Below, one piece after another: positions 2,184-64,000 of a stretch of DNA of 64,000 bases. The notes beneath the pieces are model-generated. The model worked only from the letters and a program-made list of their open reading frames with translations. It had not been told where the DNA came from and did no database searches. Position 1 is the first letter of the stretch; each line of letters starts with the position of its first letter. The translations under genes and the position numbers were made by a program. Source of the stretch: Schmidtea nova. Lineage: Eukaryota. The stretch covers positions 393,204,001 to 393,268,000 of the forward strand of contig CM097883.1 of assembly GCA_044892505.1 (NCBI GenBank), read 5' to 3'.

Positions 2184-2864
2184 AGTTTCTGATCATTAAA
2201 CAATACATAATATTAATATCCCATTAACATAGCAATCACATTTAATAACTCACAAGAAAAACTATACATAATATGGACCATAGCTGGAACTTCGATCGGC
2301 GCCTGGAACGCCGGTTTATGAATTTTCCTATTTCGATGGTACGTGGCTTTCGATTTCGGGGAAGAGTTAGTCATCGGGATCGCTTTCACCTTAATTTCTA
2401 TTGTAATTGAATGAAACACAAAAATATAGATTTTATACTATTGCTAAGAAATCAAAATAACCTGACCTCTTTTTCTGCCTACAGGCTAATATTTTCCATG
2501 CATCCAACCATTTCTCAATCCTCAAACTTCAAACAAACCTTAAAATAGACAATTCATACCATACCCAGTCAGACATTCCCCAGACAACTCAATTAATTGA
2601 ATTTAGCTGTCTACCAACTGCTGATTATTTTCGGGTTGACTGCCAACTCTCAACAATTTATACCCGCGAAAATTATGGCAACCAATGGATATTCAACTGC
2701 AATTCCGCCTGCTATTAGCGATCGATAAATTCATTAATCCCCGATTCGTTCTATGGTTGATAGTTATGATTATTTGTGGTAATAATTCATTCATCCCCGC
2801 AGATCAACTGTCAAACTTCAAGCTGTCGTCATCATTTCAACGATCTATCATCAAGTATCCATTA

Positions 2865-3719
2865 TGTTGGGGTTGTGAAAATCACAAAAGCTAAATTTGT
2901 AATTGCACAAATCAATAAAAATACAAAATTTTAAAAATAATAGTTAATGTTCAAAGATTAATTTAAAATTAATTAAAAAAATTAAAATAAAGTTTGAGCG
3001 GGGGAAACTGGTATGGGAAGATGCCAAATGATGAGACGAATTCAAATATGGGTATATAAAATTGAAATGGGACCCCCAGAAAGATAAATTAAGAAAATAC
3101 AAATTAATTAAAAAATAATTAATCGTCTAATGGAAAACCCGAGCCAATGGGAAACCCGAGCTTATGGGAAACCCGAGCGATGTGGGAAACCCGGGGCATC
3201 AACAAAATCATTTAATTATCGAAATAAATTTAATGCCCCGGGAAGAGACGAAAAACCATTAGCGGCGAAACTCAATTAGGCGGCGGTCAAACAAATCTAA
3301 TTATCTCATTTTCTCCAGATCCAATTAAGCCGACAGGATGACAACAAAAAAAAATAGTATATAAACGGAGAGCAAATTGCCGATATCGCCATGTGGTCAA
3401 AGTCAAAGTTTCGAGGTCAACCGATTGAAGAATAAAAGTAGGCAACGTGAAGCAAATCGTTAGAAGACATTTGAAGGAGACGTCGAAAGAAAACCAAAAG
3501 TAGAGTTTATACTTAATCTATTGCGTGTCAGAGAGGGAGATATCCCATTGGGTGTTCTACCCTCACGCGAAGAGTGCAGAACCGGCGTAACTTTTTGTGA
3601 TAAAAAGAGTTGTGATCAATTGAAAATAAAGAAAGTTATTGTGTTGGGTCTTGTTTATTTTGTAATTGAAAGAGAACACCGGAGTCAGAAACTACCGACT
3701 TAACACCAATAACCCAACA
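2865..3719 (+). repeat. 5' LTR
   Basis: Direct repeat of 8707-9561 with 4 substitutions seen by eye; TATATAAA near 3358 and AATAAA near 3431. Confidence 0.95.
3129..3197 (+). repeat. Four ~17-bp tandem repeats (aatgggaaacccgagc) in the LTR
   Basis: Units start at 3129, 3146, 3163 and 3180; repeated in the 3' LTR at about 8971-9039. Confidence 0.85.
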
Positions 3720-3723
3720 TATT

Positions 3724-3741
3724 TGGTGAGCCCGATGTGAT
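3724..3741 (+). promoter_or_regulatory. Primer-binding site complementary to tRNA-Trp 3' end
   Basis: TGGTGAGCCCGATGTGAT lies 4 nt after the 5' LTR and matches the classic tRNA-Trp PBS TGGTGACCCCGACGTGAT at 16/18 positions. Confidence 0.85.
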
Positions 3742-4022
3742 CAAAGTCGGTGAAGCGTTGCAAAAAGAAATCGAATATTTATTGGCAAAAAGAAATTAAA
3801 AGTTTCTAAAAAGTTTGGAAATTGTGAAATTGATTAAAAGAAAAAGTCAGTAAATCGAATCAAGGATTGAGAGAAGTTTGTTGATAATTGTGGAAAGATT
3901 TATACTGTTGAAATTAAAATAAAAGGTAAAATTTATAATTGATATTAAAATTTAGAAGAGAAAAAGTTGTACCAAACCGACCATATTACGAATTGAGAAG
4001 TAATAAACAACCAGAAACAAAA

Positions 4023-7000
4023 ATGAGTAATACAAACCATCAGGATGATACGCCCATGTCCACCAGCAACGGCAATGGCAATGACTATGCTAGCTGCCAG
4101 AAACTGCCAGTAAATCAGTATGGAGGCGATCCAGTGGAATTCGTTGATTTTATGGCTGATTACTACATGTACGCTACAGCCTATGGATGGAGCCAAGCGA
4201 CAATGGTGCAAAGATTGCCACTATATCTAAAGGGAGCAGCGAGAGAAGCCTGGCAACAAATTGACAAAAGAACAATTGCGAATAACTGGACGAAATTGAA
4301 AGATGCCTTAGCCGCGAAACTAATTGGAGGGGATATAAAACGGATAATGCGGCAGAAGTTCTATAATCGAGTGCAAAAATCAGAGGAATCGGTAAGTGAA
4401 TTTGCGTACCACTTGACTACTCTTGCAGAGAAAGCATTCGAAGTAAAGCCGGAACAGATTGAAGTGGCAAAGCAGGTGAAAGAATTGCTACAAGACCAGT
4501 TCTTAACGGGAGTCAAAAAGGAGATCAAAAAGGCATTATGTTATGTGGACTTCAATAACTTTGATGAGTTAATCAAAAAGGCGATGAAAATTGAGTTAAA
4601 TCTGAAAAGTTCACAGCCAAAATCAGAATCGTTTGCCATCATCAATGAACCCAGAGAACGGTCCATAACTCCAGTCAGAAACAATCGGCTTCAGCAATCA
4701 ATTAGTCCATCACCAACGTTTAGACAAAGATTTGAGCCAAATAAATCAACAAATGTTCAAATTGATGAAAAAGAGAGGCCAATTCAATGCAGCCATTGCC
4801 AACGAATAGGACATCATGTTAATCAATGTTGGTTCAAAAATAGATCTCCAAAAAGTCCAACTCCAATTCAGTGTGATTATTGTCAAAGGATGGGACATAA
4901 CAGCAATCAATGCTGGTCTAAAAACAACGTTCAACGAAGCCCAAAACGAATGTGGCCAGATTGGTTGAAGGGTAATGGTGAGAAAAGTTTTAATAAACTA
5001 AATTTTAACGATCAGCGTAAAAACGATAATGTGCAATGTTACAATTGTGGAAGGAAAGGACATGTCTCTCGGAATTGTTTTGCTAGATCGAGGTCTCCAT
5101 CAACTTCGCCATCCCCACAAAGAGATAGAGTGAACCTTCAAGGTCAAATTCAATGTCATTCATGTAGAGGATATGGACACATGGCTAGATCATGCCCGAG
5201 GAATGTCGACAAATTTCAGAAACCTATATTGAAAAAATCGATAAGATTTCAAAATGATCAACTGCAGACAGACAACGTGGCTTTTGTTCAATCAGATGAT
5301 TTCAATGAAAAGATTGAAAACCAAGTGAAAGAAATGGGTCGACGTTTAGATCGTTTAATGTCCAAGTTTGAATCTGATGATGAATTGGATAATCACATGA
5401 TGTATGGATCGCTGCAAGACATGACAGAAGCTGACACGACAACTGGGTGTACAAAAGACGATTTGGAAAGCGAAAAGGCTTCCATGATGATGAAAAGACT
5501 TGAGAAATTACTAGAAGCTAGCGTGGAAGAATCATCTAAAATATTGGTATCGGTTAAAAGCCTGAGTCAAATGTCGTTAAGTATGAGAAAATTGAAAGGC
5601 GCGATTAATTTGTGTGCTAATTATTATCAAATAAATGTAACAAATAGAGAAGAAATTAAAGAATTGATGAGAAAATTTGGGAAAGCGTTTCGAGAAAATA
5701 AATGGTTAGATTTTATTTCTATTGATGTTGTTAATGAAAATGATAAAAATGTGATTACTTGTCGTTGTGAAGCCTATGATCGCGTAAAAGATTTAAAAAG
5801 GAGACTAAGAGAGAAATGTGAAGGCTGGGTAGTCGAATTAAAGTTTAAAAATAGAGATTTAGAAAATGATGAATATTTAATAGATTGTGGTCTTATACCA
5901 AGGAACAAAAATGAATTACAAATAGCCAGTATGATGAGTAACAGTGAAATGACAAGAAGTGATCCGATGCAAATAGTAAAGGAGCTAAATGATGTTTTAT
6001 GTATTGGTGACGAAAACGAAATTAAAGAAATAGTAAAATTAATAGAGGAATCTGAATTTGGGCAAAAGGAAAAATTAGAACTTGCTAATGCGATACGACC
6101 CTATTTGTTTAGAAGAACGGGATATAGACAATGTTTAAAGAGAATAATGAGAAAATTGGGTAAAGAGCTTAGAAAAGATAGAGTTGAGTTAAATTCGTTA
6201 ACAATTGCAATAGAATATGAAGATATTGGGAAAACTGAGTATGTAGAGGAACACTGGTGTACGAAAGTTCGAAAAGAGCGTAAAAGAGCTGCGGAAATGT
6301 TAGGTAAAGATGGAATTATAGTGCTGAGATATAAAGGGGAAGAATTGGATGACGATGAATATTTATATGACTGCGGATGTGTGCCACAGGAACTGGATGA
6401 ATATGGGTATTTAAGTACTAATGGAAGTCAGGGGTATTTGATAAATCGCATAATCGCAAATAAAGAATATAATTCGAGGATGCTTGACAAAGTTGAATTT
6501 TCAGACACAGATGAGCAAACAGAAGAAATAAAGGAAAGCGAAATTGAAATAGTTACTGATGGTTATAATGGGGAAAAGAGGGTTAATAATAATGCTCAGA
6601 CAGCAGAAATGGCAGTTATTGAAGATACGAATATCGAAAAAGGTGAAATAAAAAGTGCGAATACGAAGACTAGAACATTGTATGAGATGAAGAAAACCTT
6701 AGTAAAATTAGAGCAGGAAGTTAAAGAAACAAGTGACGTAATAAGAAATTTGGTTGGAATCGTATACCCAATTCTAAAAATAGAGACTGAAACGGAAGAG
6801 GAATTGAAGGGAATAGTAGAAGAAGTGAAAATCAGACTTCCAGAAGTAGTGCGGCAATTGGGCAAAGAGGATAGCTTTTGTAACTGTGAAGTAATAGAAA
6901 AGTTGATCGAAAATGGGATCGATAAAGAAGTAGTGCTAATAATTCTAACCTACGTTGTTTCAGAGATCGGTATTCATGCATTTACAAAGTCAGACAAGCT

Positions 7001-7166
7001 TGATAATTTCTTTGACATTGCGGCTCGACTAATAAATGATTCTTTAATTAATTGGCTGAGAGAGCGTGGAGGGTGGAAAACATTAAATTTATCGATAATA
7101 AAGAAAAGAAAGAAACCGGAAAATGATTCACCGCAAAGGCAATTAAACGGAAGAGTAAGTCCATAA
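4023..7166 (+). CDS. gag: Gag polyprotein: capsid-like domain, 4 CCHC knuckles, duplicated unknown domain, C-terminal Bcl-2-like domain
   Basis: Open ORF (track 3939-7166; first ATG at 4023). Gag-type motifs LPLYLKGAAREAW and FYNRVQKSEESVSEF. CX2CX4HX4C at 4788, 4872, 5037 and 5154. Ends with NWLRERGGW (BH2-like). No protease, RT, RNase H or integrase motifs seen. Confidence 0.9.
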   Translation: MSNTNHQDDTPMSTSNGNGNDYASCQKLPVNQYGGDPVEFVDFMADYYMYATAYGWSQATMVQRLPLYLKGAAREAWQQIDKRTIANNWTKLKDALAAKLIGGDIKRIMRQKFYNRVQKSEESVSEFAYHLTTLAEKAFEVKPEQIEVAKQVKELLQDQFLTGVKKEIKKALCYVDFNNFDELIKKAMKIELNLKSSQPKSESFAIINEPRERSITPVRNNRLQQSISPSPTFRQRFEPNKSTNVQIDEKERPIQCSHCQRIGHHVNQCWFKNRSPKSPTPIQCDYCQRMGHNSNQCWSKNNVQRSPKRMWPDWLKGNGEKSFNKLNFNDQRKNDNVQCYNCGRKGHVSRNCFARSRSPSTSPSPQRDRVNLQGQIQCHSCRGYGHMARSCPRNVDKFQKPILKKSIRFQNDQLQTDNVAFVQSDDFNEKIENQVKEMGRRLDRLMSKFESDDELDNHMMYGSLQDMTEADTTTGCTKDDLESEKASMMMKRLEKLLEASVEESSKILVSVKSLSQMSLSMRKLKGAINLCANYYQINVTNREEIKELMRKFGKAFRENKWLDFISIDVVNENDKNVITCRCEAYDRVKDLKRRLREKCEGWVVELKFKNRDLENDEYLIDCGLIPRNKNELQIASMMSNSEMTRSDPMQIVKELNDVLCIGDENEIKEIVKLIEESEFGQKEKLELANAIRPYLFRRTGYRQCLKRIMRKLGKELRKDRVELNSLTIAIEYEDIGKTEYVEEHWCTKVRKERKRAAEMLGKDGIIVLRYKGEELDDDEYLYDCGCVPQELDEYGYLSTNGSQGYLINRIIANKEYNSRMLDKVEFSDTDEQTEEIKESEIEIVTDGYNGEKRVNNNAQTAEMAVIEDTNIEKGEIKSANTKTRTLYEMKKTLVKLEQEVKETSDVIRNLVGIVYPILKIETETEEELKGIVEEVKIRLPEVVRQLGKEDSFCNCEVIEKLIENGIDKEVVLIILTYVVSEIGIHAFTKSDKLDNFFDIAARLINDSLINWLRERGGWKTLNLSIIKKRKKPENDSPQRQLNGRVSP

Positions 7167-7178
7167 CTAAGGAAGACG

Positions 7179-7667
7179 ATGATATTCCCTTGGATAATGT
7201 TCATGATGATTATTCTATGTGCAGCTATTGCACAAACGACGTCATTGGTGGCATACGATTGTTCACAAACCGAAATGGGGAAAATTTACTCAGTGGTTGA
7301 TATGTCAGAGTGCCCAGACGCATACCCTCGAAAATTAAAGATTGAAAACGAAGTAAAATACCATGTGTATCAAGAGTCAGATTTACGGCGTACCAAAGTT
7401 AGAGAATGCATTGTAAAACGAACCACTTTTGTATTCTTCTGTGGTAAATGGAGCCATACGTCATTAATCAAAATGCACGCCATTCCACGACCGGTGGATG
7501 TATTGCCGGAAAATTGCTTAACAGCCTTCCAAACGGGGGAATTAAAAATCAGCCCTGAAATTCGATTAAAAGCGAAATTAAATCATCAAATTCGAGAAAC
7601 ATTAGTGGTGAAGGGAGTGATGAAATCAGACGGTGACTGTGAAGGTGAACCGTACTGGTTAAAATAA
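7179..7667 (+). CDS. env: Env-like glycoprotein N-terminus (chuvirus/Monjiviricetes-type fusion protein), 3'-truncated
   Basis: Hydrophobic signal peptide followed by AYDC..DMSEC..C.VK...FFCG.WSHTS..ENC..TGEL..DGDCEG, the cysteine pattern of chuviral-type glycoproteins. Runs into AT-only sequence after about 160 aa. Confidence 0.7.
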   Translation: MIFPWIMFMMIILCAAIAQTTSLVAYDCSQTEMGKIYSVVDMSECPDAYPRKLKIENEVKYHVYQESDLRRTKVRECIVKRTTFVFFCGKWSHTSLIKMHAIPRPVDVLPENCLTAFQTGELKISPEIRLKAKLNHQIRETLVVKGVMKSDGDCEGEPYWLK

Positions 7668-8640
7668 ATATATATATAAATATATAAAATAAATAAATAA
7701 ATATATAAAATAAATACAAAATTTTATATAAATGTATAAATATTATATATAAATAAAGGTATAAATATTGTATATATTATATGTGAATGTATAAATATAA
7801 ATATATAAAGCAAATATATATAAAATATAAATATATAAATAAATAAATACATAAAATTAATTTTAAAAATTAAAAAAAATAGCTCACCGAGTAATGACAT
7901 TTCTGATAAAAATGTGGAGCGCCGCCGCTTATATTCGCGGCGCTCTCTCTCATCTTGCGGAGGGAAATTCTGGGAGATAATTGAGTTGGACCAAATCGAA
8001 TTATCTCCCAAGCTGATGCTGAAAATTTTTAATTGTCAATTTGACAAAATGGTAAATTGGGAAAACTTAAATATTTTTTAAATATACTTAAATATTTTTC
8101 GATTTAATAATTTTTAATATTTTTCGATTTAATAAACAATTTTAGTATGAAATATTAAATGAGTTAATATTATTATTATTATTCTTCTTCTTCTTCTTCT
8201 TCTTCTTCTTATTATTATTATTGTTGGTATTATTATTATCAAGTAATATTGTTATTGATAATCATTATTATTGATCGTTAGTATTAGTATGGCTATTATT
8301 ATTAAGATTAGTACTATCATTAGTACTGTCATCGTTATCAGTGATATTATTATTATTAGTATTATTATTATTATCACTATTGTTGATATTGTTATCAGGA
8401 TTGTTGTTATCATCATCATTATTAATATCAGTATATTGCTAATGTTATTATCACTATTATAAACATCAGTACTATCATTATTATCAGTATGGTGGATACT
8501 ACTGATACTATTATCATCATCATTATTATACTTACGTCATTGTCATTACCACCAGTATTATTGTAATTATTATTATTATCCTTATTATTACAATTAGTGG
8601 GGATATCTTCATCACTACTAATTTTATATGATCCTTGTCA
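7660..8640 (+). repeat. AT-rich low-complexity 3' internal region with (TTC)n and (ATT/ATC)n tracts and a GC-rich island at 7890-8015
   Basis: Directly visible; a homologous region exists on the minus strand at about 55690-58970. Confidence 0.8.
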
Positions 8641-8689
8641 GGATGTATGATCAAAATATGTGTATATGTAGATTCGAGGACGAATCTTT

Positions 8690-8704
8690 AAAATAAAGGG
8701 GAGA
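8690..8704 (+). promoter_or_regulatory. Polypurine tract
   Basis: AAAATAAAGGGGAGA just upstream of the 3' LTR. Confidence 0.8.
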
Positions 8705-8706
8705 TA

Positions 8707-9561
8707 TGTTGGGGTTGTGAAAATCACAAAAGCTAAATTTGTAATTGCACAAATCAATAAAAATACAAAATTTTAAAAATAATAGTTAATGTTCAAAGAT
8801 TAATTTAAAATTAATTAAAAAAATTAAAATAAAGTTTGAGCGGGGGAAACTGGTATGGGAAGATGCCAAATGATGAGACGAATTCAAATATGGGTATATA
8901 AAATTGAAATGGGACCCCCAGAAAGATAAATTAAGAAAATACAAATTAATTAAAAAATAATTAATCGTCTAATGGAAAACCCGAGCCAATGGGAAACCCG
9001 AGCTTATGGGAAACCCGAGCGATGTGGGAAACCCGGGGCATCAACAAAATCATTTAATTATCGAAATAAATTTAATGCCCCGGGAAGAGACGAAAAACCA
9101 TTAGCGGCGAAACTCAATTAGGCGGCGGTCAAACAAATCTAATTATCTCATTTTCTCCAGATCCAATTAAGCCGACAGGATGACAACAAAAAAAAATAGT
9201 ATATAAACGGAGAGCGAATTGCCGATATCGCCATGTGGTCAAAGTCAAAGTTTCGAGGCCAACCGATTGAAGAATAAAAGTAGGCAACGTGAAGCAAATC
9301 GTTAGAAGACATTTGAAGGAGACGTCGAAAGAAAACCAAAAGTAGAGTTTATACTTAATCTATTGCGTGTCAGAGAGGGAGATATCCCATTGTGTGTTCT
9401 ACCCTCACGCGAAGAGTGCAGAACCGGGGTAACTTTTTGTGATAAAAAGAGTTGTGATCAATTGAAAATAAAGAAAGTTATTGTGTTGGGTCTTGTTTAT
9501 TTTGTAATTGAAAGAGAACACCGGAGTCAGAAACTACCGACTTAACACCAATAACCCAACA
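8707..9561 (+). repeat. 3' LTR
   Basis: Direct repeat of 2865-3719. Confidence 0.95.
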
Positions 9562-11199
9562 ATTATATATCATTTCATTCACTTGATGGGTCATTATTTT
9601 CCTTGTCAAAACTCTATCTCGTCGCTGTCAAAAAAATTAGTCGTCATGTATTGTACCCTGAAACCCATTCAGGAATTCCTAATCGTCTCTACAAAAACTC
9701 GTATAAAATACCTGTGCTATCTGAATGTATCCTCACCTTATATTCGCTTGTTGATGTGAGATGGTGGTGGTATTCTATTGCACTACGTACGCGAAAATAC
9801 AAATCGAAATAGCTTTATCTTTATCATTACGTATTTTCGATGTCTGATGTATATGCAAAATACAATTGAAAGTTACTTTCATTTTTGTCAGCATGTGTGC
9901 TCAGTACTCTAATTTGATTTATCGTGCTTCTGCTTTTGTGCCAGTGTGTTATTACCTTCGGTTACTCCATTTTAAAAAACTGCCAAAATATGCTGAGCCC
10001 TATGTGTTACTTTTATCCATCCCATCCAATTAGCGCCGGTACGCCACACCACTCAACACTCCAGGAAGTGTGCGCCGGGAGGCCAATTATCGCCCGTCTG
10101 GTCACGAGACCATCGGGACGTGCCTTTATCGATTTTCATCATGCATGTATTGGAGGAAAATTATGGGTTTAACCGAAATAAATAAAATAAATAAACAAAT
10201 GATACCTGTATTGTTTCCAAATTGATTAAATAGTACAAGCTGCAATAAATTCACAAGCCAAAAGTAATGCTATAAACTTGTTCAACCAAACAAAATTTTA
10301 TCAAGGTATATGGTATAGATATAATATTTTTGAAAAGTGTGTCCTTGTAAGAATTTGACTGCCGCTTATATACTATTTTTCGTTTGCGGTCAGTCTATCA
10401 AAATCCGCCTACCTTCACATAATTGGCAGGTATTTATTGTTATATTGTATGTTAAATCGATTTTTAATTCCATTTTTGGGTAAATAATCCGTTAATTCTC
10501 ATTACTAGATTATTAGATTCGCCCATGGAATAACAAATTGGTTTTAATTCACATTTTATTTTATTATCTTTCTAAGTTTAAATATAGTTTCTGAGCTTGC
10601 CGATGTTATAATTTTCTAATCCAATTGATTTTAAACTCAATCCATTCCTCATGGCTCCCATCTGCTACGATATGGTTAATTTGTTATTATGCATTTTATT
10701 GATTATTTCTATTATCGTTTTAGATTTTCGGAGTTATTTATTAATTATTTCCCCTTCTTTATTTATTATTCTATTTAGTTGTGGATTCTACCCTTATTCA
10801 GGTGGCCCAACATAAATTTGAAATTTTTTTATAGAATTCTGAAATAAAAATTTCAGTATGACGTTATCAGTTACGTAATTATTGGTTGTAATAAAAATAG
10901 GACATGTTACGTAACATACTTAACTATATAATATTATCTAAGTTTTGTAAAACCCTTTAAAATTTATGGGCTTCTGTATAATTATTTCGTATATAGTTGA
11001 GGGATAAATGGCTTGTGCCAGAGTGCTTACTCCCCTTTACTAGCTAGTTCGACCGTGTAGTATTCAACGTTTAAAATAAATCGGAAACTGTATATCGAAA
11101 ATCTGAATACGACACTAATTCAAATTTAACAATAAATACCAATGAATGATTTAGGATATCAAGTTATTTCTTTTGATGCTCCTTTATTTTTGTCAAGCC

Positions 11200-11430: not shown

Positions 11431-11579
11431 ATGCTGAAAAAAAAATGTCACACATTATTAAAAATAATCAAAAAGAAAGTTGTCATGGTAATGACACAAT
11501 CATTTCTTTAACGGTTCGTTTACGTTTGGTGTGTTTTAGACACCCCACGCTTTTTTCAAGCTGCTCATTTCTTAAACTG

Positions 11580-11968
11580 AAGTATATAACAGAACCGAAC
11601 GAGACGGTGAGAGCATATCTTTATCGACACATGATAAGATAATCACATAATGTTCACTTGAACCTGTTGTTGAAACGATGAAATGAGTATCTATTATTTC
11701 CTCTAAAGTCCCCAAGACTAATGGGCTTCCTTTAATATCCTCCAGCTTAGTGCGTTCTGCTTCTGTTTGATCTTTTTCAGTGTTCAAATGTTCTTGATTT
11801 TCAATTAATTCTTGTTAAGTGAGTAAATTATCTTTAATTCGTTTAAGTTTCATTTAGCGTAACAAGCATCGTGGATGAGGCATTATTGATGACAGTTTTC
11901 AACTATCGAAGATCCTTTAGATTGTTTTTTCTTACCAATTGTTGTAGGCAGTGGTGGTTGATATTTCA
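11580..11968 (-). pseudogene. PSMC1: 26S proteasome ATPase Rpt2 N-terminal fragment
   Basis: KYQPPLPTTIGKKK..LKRIKDNLL..EAERTKLEDIKGSPLVLGTLEEII..HFIVST..SEHYVIILSCVDKDML resembles PSMC1; stops and frameshifts, no AAA domain follows. Confidence 0.75.
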
Positions 11969-46213: not shown

Positions 46214-46289
46214 CTTAAAATATACGAGAAATGCAAAAAGAAAGTGGAATTGACATTTAGATTAATATTTTATTATTATAAATTCTTAC

Positions 46290-46656
46290 CACATCCGATA
46301 ATATTGTACGCGAATCATTGTTTTTATATCTAGATTCAGAAAATCTCGGGTCAAGTATTTGTGCCGCTTTCAAATGCCGATCAGGACATAGTTGGGATGT
46401 AAATTGAAAAACTGCCGGAGCAGTGATTACAACAGATAGCCCATGTGGAATCAACGGTTTCATCGTTTTTGATACCGGTTTGTAATCACTAACATTAGGA
46501 TACACGGATTTTGCAAGTCCGGAAATGGGATAGCTCATTCCATGACAAAGGTGAACCCCAGCATTGCCGAATCCCATCCCCGCTAACGCGCTGGCAAAAT
46601 GCATTTGACTGCGAGCTTCAGAATCCATAGGATCACTGACACTGCGTCGAAAATAC
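46290..46656 (-). CDS. ADHFE1: ADHFE1 exon 5
   Basis: YFRRSV..EARSQMHFASALAGMGFGNAGVHLCHGMSYPISG..PHGLSV; AG acceptor, GTAAGA donor, phase 2 in. Confidence 0.95.
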
Positions 46657-46709
46657 CTAAACTAACAATCACATTTTACTAATATAATTAAGCCAGGAAA
46701 GTTCAAAAG

Positions 46710-55386: not shown

Positions 55387-55404
55387 TTTTCCTCCACAAC
55401 AAAC

Positions 55405-55872
55405 ATTAGCTCGGGTTTCCCATTAGGCAATTAATTATTTTTATTAATTTGTATTTTCTTTATATTTCTTTCTGGGGCCCCTTTTCAATTTTATATACCC
55501 ATATTTGAATTCGTCTCATCATTTGGCATCCTACCATACCAGTTTCCCTCTTTAAATCTTTAGTTTTGAATTTTATAAAATTTTAATTAATGTTTGCACT
55601 TTTATTATTATTTTTCCAATTTTGTATTTTTATTGATTTGCACATAGCTTTCGTGCCTTACTTTCTGTTTATTTTAACAACCCAAACATGTCTCTCTCCT
55701 TATTTAAGATTCGTTCTCGAATCTATAATATTTAAATGTGCAATGGATTGATAGCGATTGTCTTATAAAAAGAACTCTGCAGCCAGACTTCAATCAATGC
55801 TGCTACCGGGAATTTATCGTCTCGATTACCAATAATAATATTACTGTAGTATTAATAATGCTAAATAATAAT

Positions 55873-58900: not shown

Positions 58901-59800
58901 CTAAATTTTATTCATTAGATATAATATTTATAATGATAATACTCTATGCTGAATATAGTAATAATAACTGGAAGTTATTTTTCTCACCATTACCTTTCAA
59001 CCACTTTGGCGACATTCGTTTTGGGCTTCATTGCACATTATTTTTAGACCAACTTTGACTATTACTATGTCCCATCCTTTGACAATAATCACACTGGATT
59101 GGAGTTGGACATTTTGGAGATCTATTTTTGAACCAACATTGATTAATATGATGTCCTATCCGTTGACAATTGATGCATTGTATTGACCTCTCCTTTTATT
59201 TAATTTGAACATTTGTTGATTTTCTCGTCTCAAATCTTTGTCTAAACGTTGGCGATGGACTAATTGATAGCTGAAGCCGATTGTTTTTGACTGAAGTTAC
59301 GGATCTTTCTCTGTGTTCATTAATGATGGCAAACGATTCTGATTTTTACTGTGAGCTTTTCAAATTCAACTCAATTTTCATCGCTTTTTTGATCAATTCA
59401 TCAAAGTTATTGAAGTCTACATCACATAAAACTTTTTTGATTTCCTTTTTGACTCCTGATAAGAGCTCGTCTTGTAACAATTCCTTTACCTGCTTTACCA
59501 CTTAAATCTGTTCTGGTTTTACCTAGAATGCCTTTTCTGCAAGAGTTGTAAAATGGTACGCGTATTCACTTACAGATTCATCTGATTTTTGCACTTGGTT
59601 ATAGAACTTCTCTCGCATTATCCGTTTTATATCCCCCAATTAACATCGCTGCCAAGGCATCTTTCGGTTTCATCCAGTTATTAACAATTGTTCGTTTATC
59701 GATTTGTTGCCAGGCCTGTCTCGCTGCTCAGTTTAGATATAGTAGCAGCCTTTGCACAATTGTCTCTTGGCTAGATCCATAGGCCGTGGCATGAGTACTC
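55405..59800 (-). mobile_element. Decayed, internally deleted second copy of the gag-Bcl-2 LTR family, in ADHFE1 intron 2
   Basis: Partial 3' LTR 55405-55688, PPT and hairpin 55689-55724, ATT-rich tracts, GC island near 56760-56810, gag remnant 58975-59800. Confidence 0.85.
58975..59800 (-). pseudogene. gag: gag remnant collinear with about 4165-4987
   Basis: Reverse complement follows the intact gag nucleotide sequence through knuckles 1-2, with several stops. Confidence 0.9.
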
Positions 59801-62280: not shown

Positions 62281-62717
62281 CGACAAAAATCTAACAATCT
62301 TATATGGTCCATTGTTTCAGCCAAAGTTTGCCTGAACAAACTTTGGCTGCTTTTTGCTGCATGTAATTTCGGTTTAATTGATCAGCGTCTGTGTGCGCAT
62401 TTTTTAATTACTGTTGCGCCTGTGTGCGTGTATTCTGAATTAATTCTCGCGTCTGTGTGCAGTTTATTGTAAATTTTAGCTACACGCGTCTGTGTGCGCA
62501 AGATTATTTTGCAAATTGGAGATTTTTTTAGGATTTATTGTTTAAATATTCTGATGGAATTTTAGTTTTCGATATTTTTTGATTTTGAATTTAGTTCCGA
62601 TTTGGATGAATTGGGTGAATTTAGGAATTTAGATTTGTTTCTTTGAATTCCGGCTAAAAGGGGTATCAAAAATGGAATTTTCATTGTTTATCTATCCTTT
62701 CGCTTTCGATGTGGAAA

Positions 62718-62940
62718 ATGGAACATTCATTGCGTGATTCGTTTTGTGTTGTTAAAAGGGCACTGGAAAGTAAATCTGTTGTTCCTAGTGGAGGCGCATG
62801 TGAAGCCGCTTTGCATGTATATCTCGAGAAATATGCTATGACGATTAGTTCCAGAGAACAAATTGCAATTGCTGGATTCGCTAAAGCCTTGTTGGTTATT
62901 CCCAAGCAGTTGGCTGTCAATGCTGCCTTGGATCCTACTG
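62718..62940 (+). pseudogene. TCP1: Chaperonin CCT-alpha fragment
   Basis: MEHSLRDSFCVVKRALESKSVVPSGGACEAALHVYLEKYA..SREQIAIAGFAKALLVIPKQLAVNAA. Confidence 0.85.
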
Positions 62941-63262
62941 AAATGTATCCTGAATCAAGACTCTGCTGGTTTAACAAAATGATATTTGATGACAATTTAA
63001 CCCAGTTTACTGTGATCGGTAGATTGTTTGGTCTCGCAATTTACAATAACTTTATGATTGATCCTCACTCTCCTCGTGTAATGTTCGAAACATTGTTCAA
63101 TGAAAAGGCTAATCTAGATGATTTAATCGAGCTCAATCCAACCTTGGGGAAATCATTACAGACATTACTTCATTTCGATCAAGGTGATTTTGAGGACATA
63201 TTTATGATTAATTGTGTTATCTCTCTCGAGTCAATTGATAATAAAATCCTTGAAACAGTGTT
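62941..63262 (+). pseudogene. HECT E3 ligase (HERC-like) N-lobe fragment, in frame with the TCP1 fragment
   Basis: SRLCWF..IGRLFGLAIYN..LDDLIELNPTLGKSLQTLL..FEDIF. Confidence 0.8.
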
Positions 63263-63605
63263 GCGTGTTGTCAGAAACAAAAATGGTAGCAGAGCGTGGT
63301 TGCCATCGGGGGACCACGCGCTCTCTGGAATTTTCTAGCTATCCAGCCAGAACAAGGTACCTTTGCTTGGTCTATGTTTTTGTAATATCTTTTTACATTA
63401 TTTTGAACCTTATTATTGTAAATTTTCATCTTGGGTTAAAACATTTCCCCCTCTGCCCTTTACCATGTTTTGCGGTGGGTTGGGTCCATTAAGGGACCGG
63501 AAAAGATGCTGCTATGGGCCCCAGCATTCTTTTCAATTGGGGGACGAAATAGCCAGGAGAACAGATGGACATAGGAGATCTGTTCCTTTAATTGGAAAAA
63601 ATAAA

Positions 63606-63785
63606 ACGGGTGGGGCTTGTGTGAATAAGGGGTGTGTTCCAAAAGAAATAATGTACAATACAGCGATGATTAGAGAGATAGGGCGAGAGGTTAAAAATTA
63701 TGGATTTAAAATCAATTATGAGTGTTTCAACTGGGAAATCATTAAGCTAAAGCGAGATAGTTATATAAAAAATCTGAATAATAGT
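63606..63785 (+). pseudogene. Glutathione-reductase-like fragment (redox-active disulfide motif)
   Basis: [40 protein letters not shown]. Confidence 0.8.
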
Positions 63786-64000
63786 TTTGAAGTAAAATCT
63801 ACAAGTGGGGATACGTTTTTGGGTGGGGAAGATTTTGATAATGTGCCGTTACAAAATATTGTTAATGAATTTAAACGTGATCCAGGCGTTGATGGTAATA
63901 AAGCCCCTATGGCTTCACAGAGAGTTAGAGAAGCAGCTGAAAAGGTTAAAATTGACCTGTCATCAGCTATTCAAACGCACATTAATCTTCCATATTTGAC
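63786..64000 (+). pseudogene. HSPA9: Mortalin HSP70 fragment, in frame with the reductase fragment; open to window end
   Basis: [45 protein letters not shown]. Confidence 0.88.

Follow-up and report, generated by a model that had tools for sequence, protein, structure and literature searches.

The closest described systems are the giant Burro retroelements of planarians (Burro1/GYPSM1 and Burro2-4). Drawing on Grohme et al. 2018, Arkhipova and Yushenova (2019, PMC6431247) describe a BCL2-like motif in Burro-2, -3 and -4, with a SUMO-like motif ahead of it and an in-frame env between it and the protease, and they call for experiments. BURRO1 is under PIWI control (PMC8532177), and according to PMC13465017 (citing Lee et al. 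2026 Dev Cell) the BIR-RING region of Burro1 (B-IAP) shields stem cells from apoptosis. We consider a 64,000-nucleotide stretch of the Schmidtea nova genome (the window; GCA_044892505.1, contig CM097883.1, positions 393,204,001 to 393,268,000, forward strand). It holds a Ty3/gypsy-type retroelement with long terminal repeats (LTRs) whose polyprotein contains a Bcl-2-like domain. A sequence-only reading had proposed that a retroelement captured a Bcl-2-fold gene, possibly to protect host stem or germ cells, and profiles and structure bear the capture out. A check of earlier annotations of giant gypsy elements shows that the captured domain and the layout around it are already published for planarian Burro elements (PMC6431247). 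Our additions are structural support for the fold, counts that bear on selection, the case that the domains of many families go back to one origin, the idea of an anchor shared with Env, and a Maverick-like element that took up Bcl-2 independently. No functional test of the Burro BCL2-like domain was found in the literature searched (Grohme 2018 and Lee 2026 were outside its scope).

The family of the window element shares the published Burro core: a single long open reading frame (ORF) with Gag and CCHC knuckles, SUMO-like and BCL2-like parts, an env of mononegavirus type, and then protease, reverse transcriptase (RT), RNase H and integrase (PMC6431247). The intact element is about 17 kb, with LTRs of 0.86 kb and an ORF of 3,401 aa, whereas Burro1 is >30 kb including its LTRs, with 4,873 aa (PMC6431247). 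Unlike Burro, ORF1 and ORF2 of one unbroken copy have no MATH/TRAF, BIR or ankyrin Pfam match, and the second ORF (483 aa, sister locus L022:2276-3727) is like the exonucleases ISG20L2/ISG20 (E 2.6e-7). Since the Burro core is present, yet at half the size and without MATH, BIR or ankyrin, we call the family, judged by its layout, Burro-like. ORF2 of families B, C and D has no Pfam match. The Ty3/gypsy features are the LTRs, a putative primer-binding site, a target duplication and the order of protease, RT, RNase H and integrase (pol was read in sister copies and is deleted in the window).

A Bcl-2 fold inside the polyprotein

A genome search gave 1,612 candidates, of which 150 were scored. 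There is no stop within the domain in 121/150, and an unbroken 3,401-codon frame surrounds it in 19/150. By Pfam one unbroken sister copy has the order Gag, Bcl-2-like, Env, protease, RT, RNase H, integrase. In full, the sister-copy frame is made up of Gag, a pair of ubiquitin-like repeats, the Bcl-2 domain, a hydrophobic stretch, Env and Pol. Seven families in the genome have the layout Gag, ubiquitin-like, Bcl-2, hydrophobic segment, Env. The domain had been described as the C-terminus of Gag without a transmembrane anchor. It is internal to the polyprotein, and a hydrophobic segment follows just past the stop of the window copy. The C-terminal, anchorless appearance is due to that stop, which is private damage to this copy; elsewhere the frame runs on into Env and Pol.

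The Bcl-2-like domain is real and its likeness to Bcl-2 proteins is beyond chance. The window protein alone matches PF00452 at aa 948-1046 with 19.0 bits (expectation value, E, 0.002), below the curated cut-off of 31.4. Sister families B and C exceed this cut-off. When PF00452 was run against the genome, 33/150 rows were above it, and the 30 inspected divide into 16 in two sister retroelement families and 14 of cellular type. A profile made only from element rows finds Bcl-2/Bcl-xL in the PDB at E 8e-8 (13 rows) and Bcl-xL at E 4.4e-10 (25 rows), each time from Bcl-2 homology (BH) motif 1 to BH2. Alignment of the element profile to six cellular-type exons with hhalign gave 96%. Against 1.84 billion proteins the profile has 24 matches: 14 cellular-type Bcl-2 proteins, 9 element-like proteins (6 with Gag or Env attached) and 1 repetitive sequence. 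A word-based protein search with the domain, restricted to near lengths, had nothing at E 0.001 among 990 candidates, and phmmer with the window domain against the PDB put designed helical repeats on top, with Bcl-2 family members no better than E 0.06.

Structure points the same way. An alignment-based model from 25 element rows has a predicted local distance difference test (pLDDT) of 83.5 and a predicted template modelling score (pTM) of 0.80. In VIA-align its best Z is 14.1 (root-mean-square deviation 2.7, 131 aligned). The top 33 chains all have the Bcl-2 fold and the first unrelated one comes at Z 5.5. It must be noted that helical models can reach such a Z by chance, so the fold claim rests on the gap to unrelated chains and on the sequence profiles. 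All 40 rows listed by Foldseek are Bcl-2 family, and in its viral library viral Bcl-2 proteins rank first, at E 0.012 or worse. The domain resembles the cellular family (PF00452; Bcl-xL, Bfl-1, Trichoplax Bcl-2L2, BAK, BOK) in its fold, its BH2 and a hydrophobic segment at a similar distance past BH2. It differs in having no NWGR, a degenerate BH3 and a structural-alignment identity of only 9-18%.

The three motifs first noticed (EVVRQLGKE, a BH1 position and BH2) and the basic tail behind them do lie in one frame, within the ORF of Table 1. It was also correctly seen that BH1 lacks NWGR, for which the window reads DKEV, and that BH2 is a strong match. BH2 is nearly invariant: its Gly is invariant and both Trp are at least 90% conserved (25 rows). 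The BH3 assignment did not hold. EVVRQLGKE (6843-6869) is in frame about 21 residues ahead of BH1. The structural match begins at the first helix of the model, which makes LKGIVEEV the likely BH3 position, and a MAFFT alignment puts BH3 one helix earlier. EVVRQLGKE is outside BH3 and in helix 3 in both registers, so it was rejected as BH3 and is probably helix 3. Families B, C and D (L109, L111, L113) have a BH3-like helix, AE[KR]L[RK]EIA, just upstream of helix 1 of the domain, which may resemble those of BH3-only proteins. No BH3 exon of the host Bak-like genes was found within 20 kb upstream, nor by genome search.

A single capture from a cellular gene is the likely origin of the domain. 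A tree of 37 domains places 18 element rows on one side of a branch and 19 others on the other, with support 98/93; this tree has ten long branches, leaves out three search matches and includes one 'cellular' row that sits on a Maverick-like element. The tree does not resolve the donor paralogue.

A proposed survival function and its alternatives

We favour a pro-survival role, in which the domain would keep the expressing host cell alive while the element copies itself, and we hold this with evenly balanced confidence. The route may run as follows. The hydrophobic segment would insert into the endoplasmic reticulum (ER) as the internal signal sequence of Env. Signal peptidase would cut just ahead of Env, so that the Bcl-2 part would retain the segment and end in a C-terminal anchor like its cellular counterparts. 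The element protease would probably release the domain from Gag, and the anchored domain would restrain host effectors of Bak/Bok type. We infer these four steps (ER insertion, cleavage, release, restraint) from the layout. A hydrophobic 17-mer begins 20-45 residues past BH2 in 14/14 elements that have both parts, and in 8 cellular proteins the anchor lies 10-34 residues past BH2. In copies without the break this segment would likely act as the domain's tail anchor. In the window copy the stop precedes it.

Several observations weigh against all this. There is no Gly-Asp at the window BH3 position in either of two registers, the BH1 Gly is absent in 27/28 element rows, and the BH1 Arg is absent in all 16 rows of the window clade. 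Foldseek has no match at E 0.001 or better among the 40 listed rows, its best being 2e-3 (at prob 1.00). A single-sequence model was poor (pLDDT 48.5) and was not used. Recognition by the ESM Atlas was low, with BID and BCL2L15 as the nearest clusters. Constraint is only moderate: the ratio of nonsynonymous to synonymous polymorphism (pN/pS) is 0.30 in the domain vs 0.05 in Gag and Env and 0.43 in an acidic linker. The presumed cut, two residues ahead of the Env motif, has small residues at -3 and -1 in 13/14 elements, but the rows are related and the site was picked after sequence inspection, with hydropathy and the -3,-1 rule. Finally, the signal sequence is also found without the domain, and therefore its conservation is no proof of Bcl-2 anchoring.

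The loss of BH1 residues needs to be considered first. Poxvirus A46, A52, B14 and N1 are Bcl-2-fold scaffolds that block innate-immune or autophagy signalling. The element domain could likewise be a real Bcl-2 fold used as a scaffold against such signalling and not for BH3 binding. NWGR is lost, A46, A52, B14 and N1 are among the fold matches, and the element also has ubiquitin-like repeats and the ISG20L2-like exonuclease. Burro elements carry MATH/TRAF domains (PMC6431247), which fits the same idea. However, the model is much nearer to cellular Bcl-2 proteins (Z 12-14) than to A52, N1, B14 or A46 (Z 5.5-7.7), BH2 is nearly invariant, and K or R occupies the BH1 Arg position in 12/12 rows outside the window clade. 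We judge the scaffold role unlikely. Binding of BH3 typically hinges on contact with the BH1 Arg, its hallmark, but many viral Bcl-2 proteins bind BH3 even though they have no NWGR, and some poxvirus proteins do so via a different Arg (PMC8310162). In 16/16 rows of the window clade, which are related to each other, K or R stands two places ahead of the lost Arg. Family C retains the Arg itself, and BH1 of one sister copy reads NWDR. The degenerate BH1 would also be compatible with a non-apoptotic role. When the domain was modelled in complex with a BOK-like BH3 stretch of the host (38 residues), the prediction scored 0.02 without an alignment and is no evidence either way.

One can also imagine a structural role, with the domain as a matrix-like spacer that binds membrane and links Gag with Env at budding. 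In every family it does sit between Gag and the Env signal sequence and is followed by a basic linker. The distribution of the domain argues otherwise. Among 120 listed relatives by RT similarity 18 have an in-frame Env. The Bcl-2 profile on these 18 is clear in 2, weak over most of the domain in one and weak over part of it in another; a signal and the start of Env are visible by eye in 16 env-bearing RT relatives. Since most env-bearing relatives are without the domain, it looks accessory. On an RT tree of 29 rows, which leaves out one truncated relative and two outgroup candidates, Env elements without Bcl-2 fall both outside and inside the Bcl-2-bearing clade (root weak, 77/55). This fits a single insertion ahead of a pre-existing signal sequence, followed by losses. 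The tree and the Bcl-2-less relatives therefore argue against a particle-essential role. The domain also evolves about 5x faster than the Gag capsid or Env, with a nonsynonymous distance (dN) between two families of 0.36 vs 0.07. A spacer is quite improbable on these grounds.

The losses implied by the RT tree, together with decayed functional motifs and a constraint little above that of the acidic linker, would suit a relic that is retained only since the frame must read through to Env and Pol. Selection speaks against it. Synonymous distances between families are mostly saturated, so our case is built on counts within family A (40 copies, 4,869 codons). Here pN/pS in the domain is 0.30 for shared variants and 0.64 for singletons (p 5e-4), which means amino-acid changes are purged and not stops alone. 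Of the stops in the domain 5 are singletons and none is shared. The sequence-only reading had named neutral decay as the outcome that would count against it, and the domain does not evolve neutrally. Pairwise ratios among 20 older copies range from 0.16 to 0.66. The domain is constrained yet fast-evolving, under moderate purifying selection. The hydrophobic core and BH2 are maintained across families that are 15-30% identical, and a confident fold is still predicted. We doubt strongly that the domain is a relic.

A pro-apoptotic or membrane-permeabilising role of Bak/Bok type, aiding particle exit, is very improbable, for although the top fold matches include BAK and BOK and the ESM Atlas clusters lean the same way, pro-survival proteins fit equally well, BH3 is degenerate, and an element that multiplies in the host genome would presumably gain little from killing its own cell.

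The window copy and its surroundings

The window copy is dead, and the most it could make is a Gag-Bcl-2 protein with no anchor (Table 1). Its frame had been called intact. This is so up to the stop, but beyond it about 10 kb of env/pol is missing relative to sister copies. The stop is a sense codon in 38/39 sister loci (1 is not covered), and its exact sequence has a match at 1 place in the genome. Because the LTRs are 99.4% identical and a 4-base target duplication is present, the insertion is recent. We considered whether copies with this deletion and stop are spreading as a subfamily. A 22-base pattern across the deletion junction has 14 genome matches, but the env side is absent in 10/10 of the others examined and the stop is at one place only, so this was rejected.

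Table 1. Features of the retroelement in the window (window coordinates; E values from Pfam)
Feature	Position	Strand	Basis and remarks
Left 4-bp target-site duplication, ATTA	2861..2864	+	second copy at 9562-9565
LTR retroelement, whole	2865-9561	+	flanked by LTRs; internally deleted copy
5' LTR, TG...CA ends	2865..3719	+	identity with 3' LTR
Primer-binding-site-like sequence, begins TGG, just inside LTR	3724..3741	+	sequence; role inferred from position
Truncated polyprotein frame, 1,075 codons with first ATG at 4023; covers the N-terminal third	3939..7166	+	ORF list, sister copies
Gag capsid domain	4218..4457	+	PF03732, E 1e-7
Four CCHC zinc knuckles	4788..5195	+	Pfam scan, sequence
Two helix-plus-ubiquitin/SUMO-like repeats, limits approximate	5646..6413	+	PF11976 E 0.002, PF00240 E 0.058, both below cut-off
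Bcl-2-fold domain, ~aa 922-1057	6702..7109	+	profile and structure searches; longer than the span first proposed, 6810..7090
Likely BH3 position, LKGIVEEV, degenerate, register uncertain	6804..6827	+	structural match; MAFFT gives other register
BH1 position KLIENGIDKEVVLIILTYV, DKEV in place of cellular NWGR	6900..6956	+	profile alignment
BH2 ARLINDSLINWLRERGGWKTL, WLRERGGW at 7053-7076	7023..7085	+	Pfam, profile
Basic linker	7086..7163	+	ORF translation
Premature stop, private to window copy	7164..7166	+	genome search, sister loci
Hydrophobic segment 7179-7229 and predicted signal-peptidase site; putative Env internal signal sequence	7179..7244	+	from hydropathy and the -3,-1 rule
N-terminal part of Env (fusion glycoprotein of Monjiviricetes type), truncated by deletion	7245..7654	+	PF24664, E 1.5e-23, same frame past stop
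Junction of ~10 kb internal deletion	7646..7654	+	9 bases common to both sides
Remnant of AT-rich 3' non-coding region of element	7655..8706	+	sister-copy comparison
3' LTR	8707..9561	+	identity with 5' LTR

The Bcl-2 core of the window copy (6726-7091) differs from a sister copy with dN 0.025 and a synonymous distance (dS) of 0.065, while dN in the rest of the frame is <=0.006. It is possibly a mosaic of sub-lineages. Older pieces of the same element family are present in the window as a gag fragment at 58979-59790 (-), 86% identical, and an LTR fragment at 55404-55725, ~84% identical. There are also fragments of unrelated host genes. A single frame at 62658-64000 (+) joins a TCP-1 chaperonin to a HECT ligase and then to Hsp70 pieces, and others come from an Fe-alcohol dehydrogenase (46257-46661, -) and a proteasomal ATPase (11572-11814, -). 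All these fragments look like captured or retroposed gene pieces.

In the sister locus the polyprotein continues past the integrase (L022:590-1879) for ~430 residues. This part begins hydrophobic, has a strongly hydrophobic segment at its C-terminal end and has no Pfam match; it resembles a second membrane protein. An immunoglobulin domain occupies the corresponding region in two relatives. In relative P0072 a PF00240 match (E 4e-5) precedes the Bcl-2-like stretch, and ankyrins are present too.

Apoptosis regulators on other mobile elements

Large DNA viruses are well known to carry Bcl-2 mimics, and there the homologues are free-standing genes with their own anchor. The element domain is like these proteins (KSHV Bcl-2, ASFV A179L, canarypox CNP058, ORFV125) in being a parasite-borne Bcl-2 fold with decayed BH motifs. 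It is unlike them in lying inside the polyprotein of a reverse-transcribing element, where the anchor would be the Env signal sequence. Burro1 B-IAP is likewise a host-derived apoptosis regulator in a giant retroelement, but it targets caspases and is a separate captured gene (PMC13465017).

Two other kinds of element were met in the genome. A Maverick/Polinton-like element (C1:16320343-16335738 and others) has DNA polymerase B (PF03175) and inverted repeats of 3-4 kb. Each repeat holds a TBP-like ORF and a 154-codon Bcl-2 ORF that scores above the Pfam cut-off and ends in a hydrophobic stretch; a prenyltransferase ORF is present in one copy as well. This type makes up ~120/136 rows of one genome search. 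Its Bcl-2 is apart from the retroelement domains on the tree, so it is a separate capture. A limited literature search found no report of a Bcl-2-bearing Maverick-like element.

The other spans 24-25 kb and has LTRs 4-4.4 kb long (C1:552695350-552720348). Its ORFs encode protease and ankyrin, RING-TRAF-MATH and BIR-RING, an accessory set of Burro1 type, and its 399-codon BIR-RING ORF accounts for most of 150 BIR rows. It has no RT motif and no Bcl-2 match. This high-copy element was considered as a partner Bcl-2 carrier and was rejected, as 2/2 copies have no Bcl-2 profile match.

We return to the pro-survival reading. It is tentatively possible that the Bcl-2 domain is anchored through the Env internal signal, so that one signal-peptidase cut would yield both an envelope protein and a tail-anchored death blocker. 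With the BIR-RING LTR element and the Bcl-2 Maverick-like element, three kinds of mobile element would then have captured apoptosis regulators separately, and cell death may be the host's main check on mobile DNA. Since there are seven related families, some with and some without the BH1 Arg, natural variants can be compared. If the pro-survival reading is true, a transposon steers mitochondrial cell death from within its own polyprotein, and the reported Burro1 case would be extended from caspase inhibition to the Bcl-2 checkpoint.

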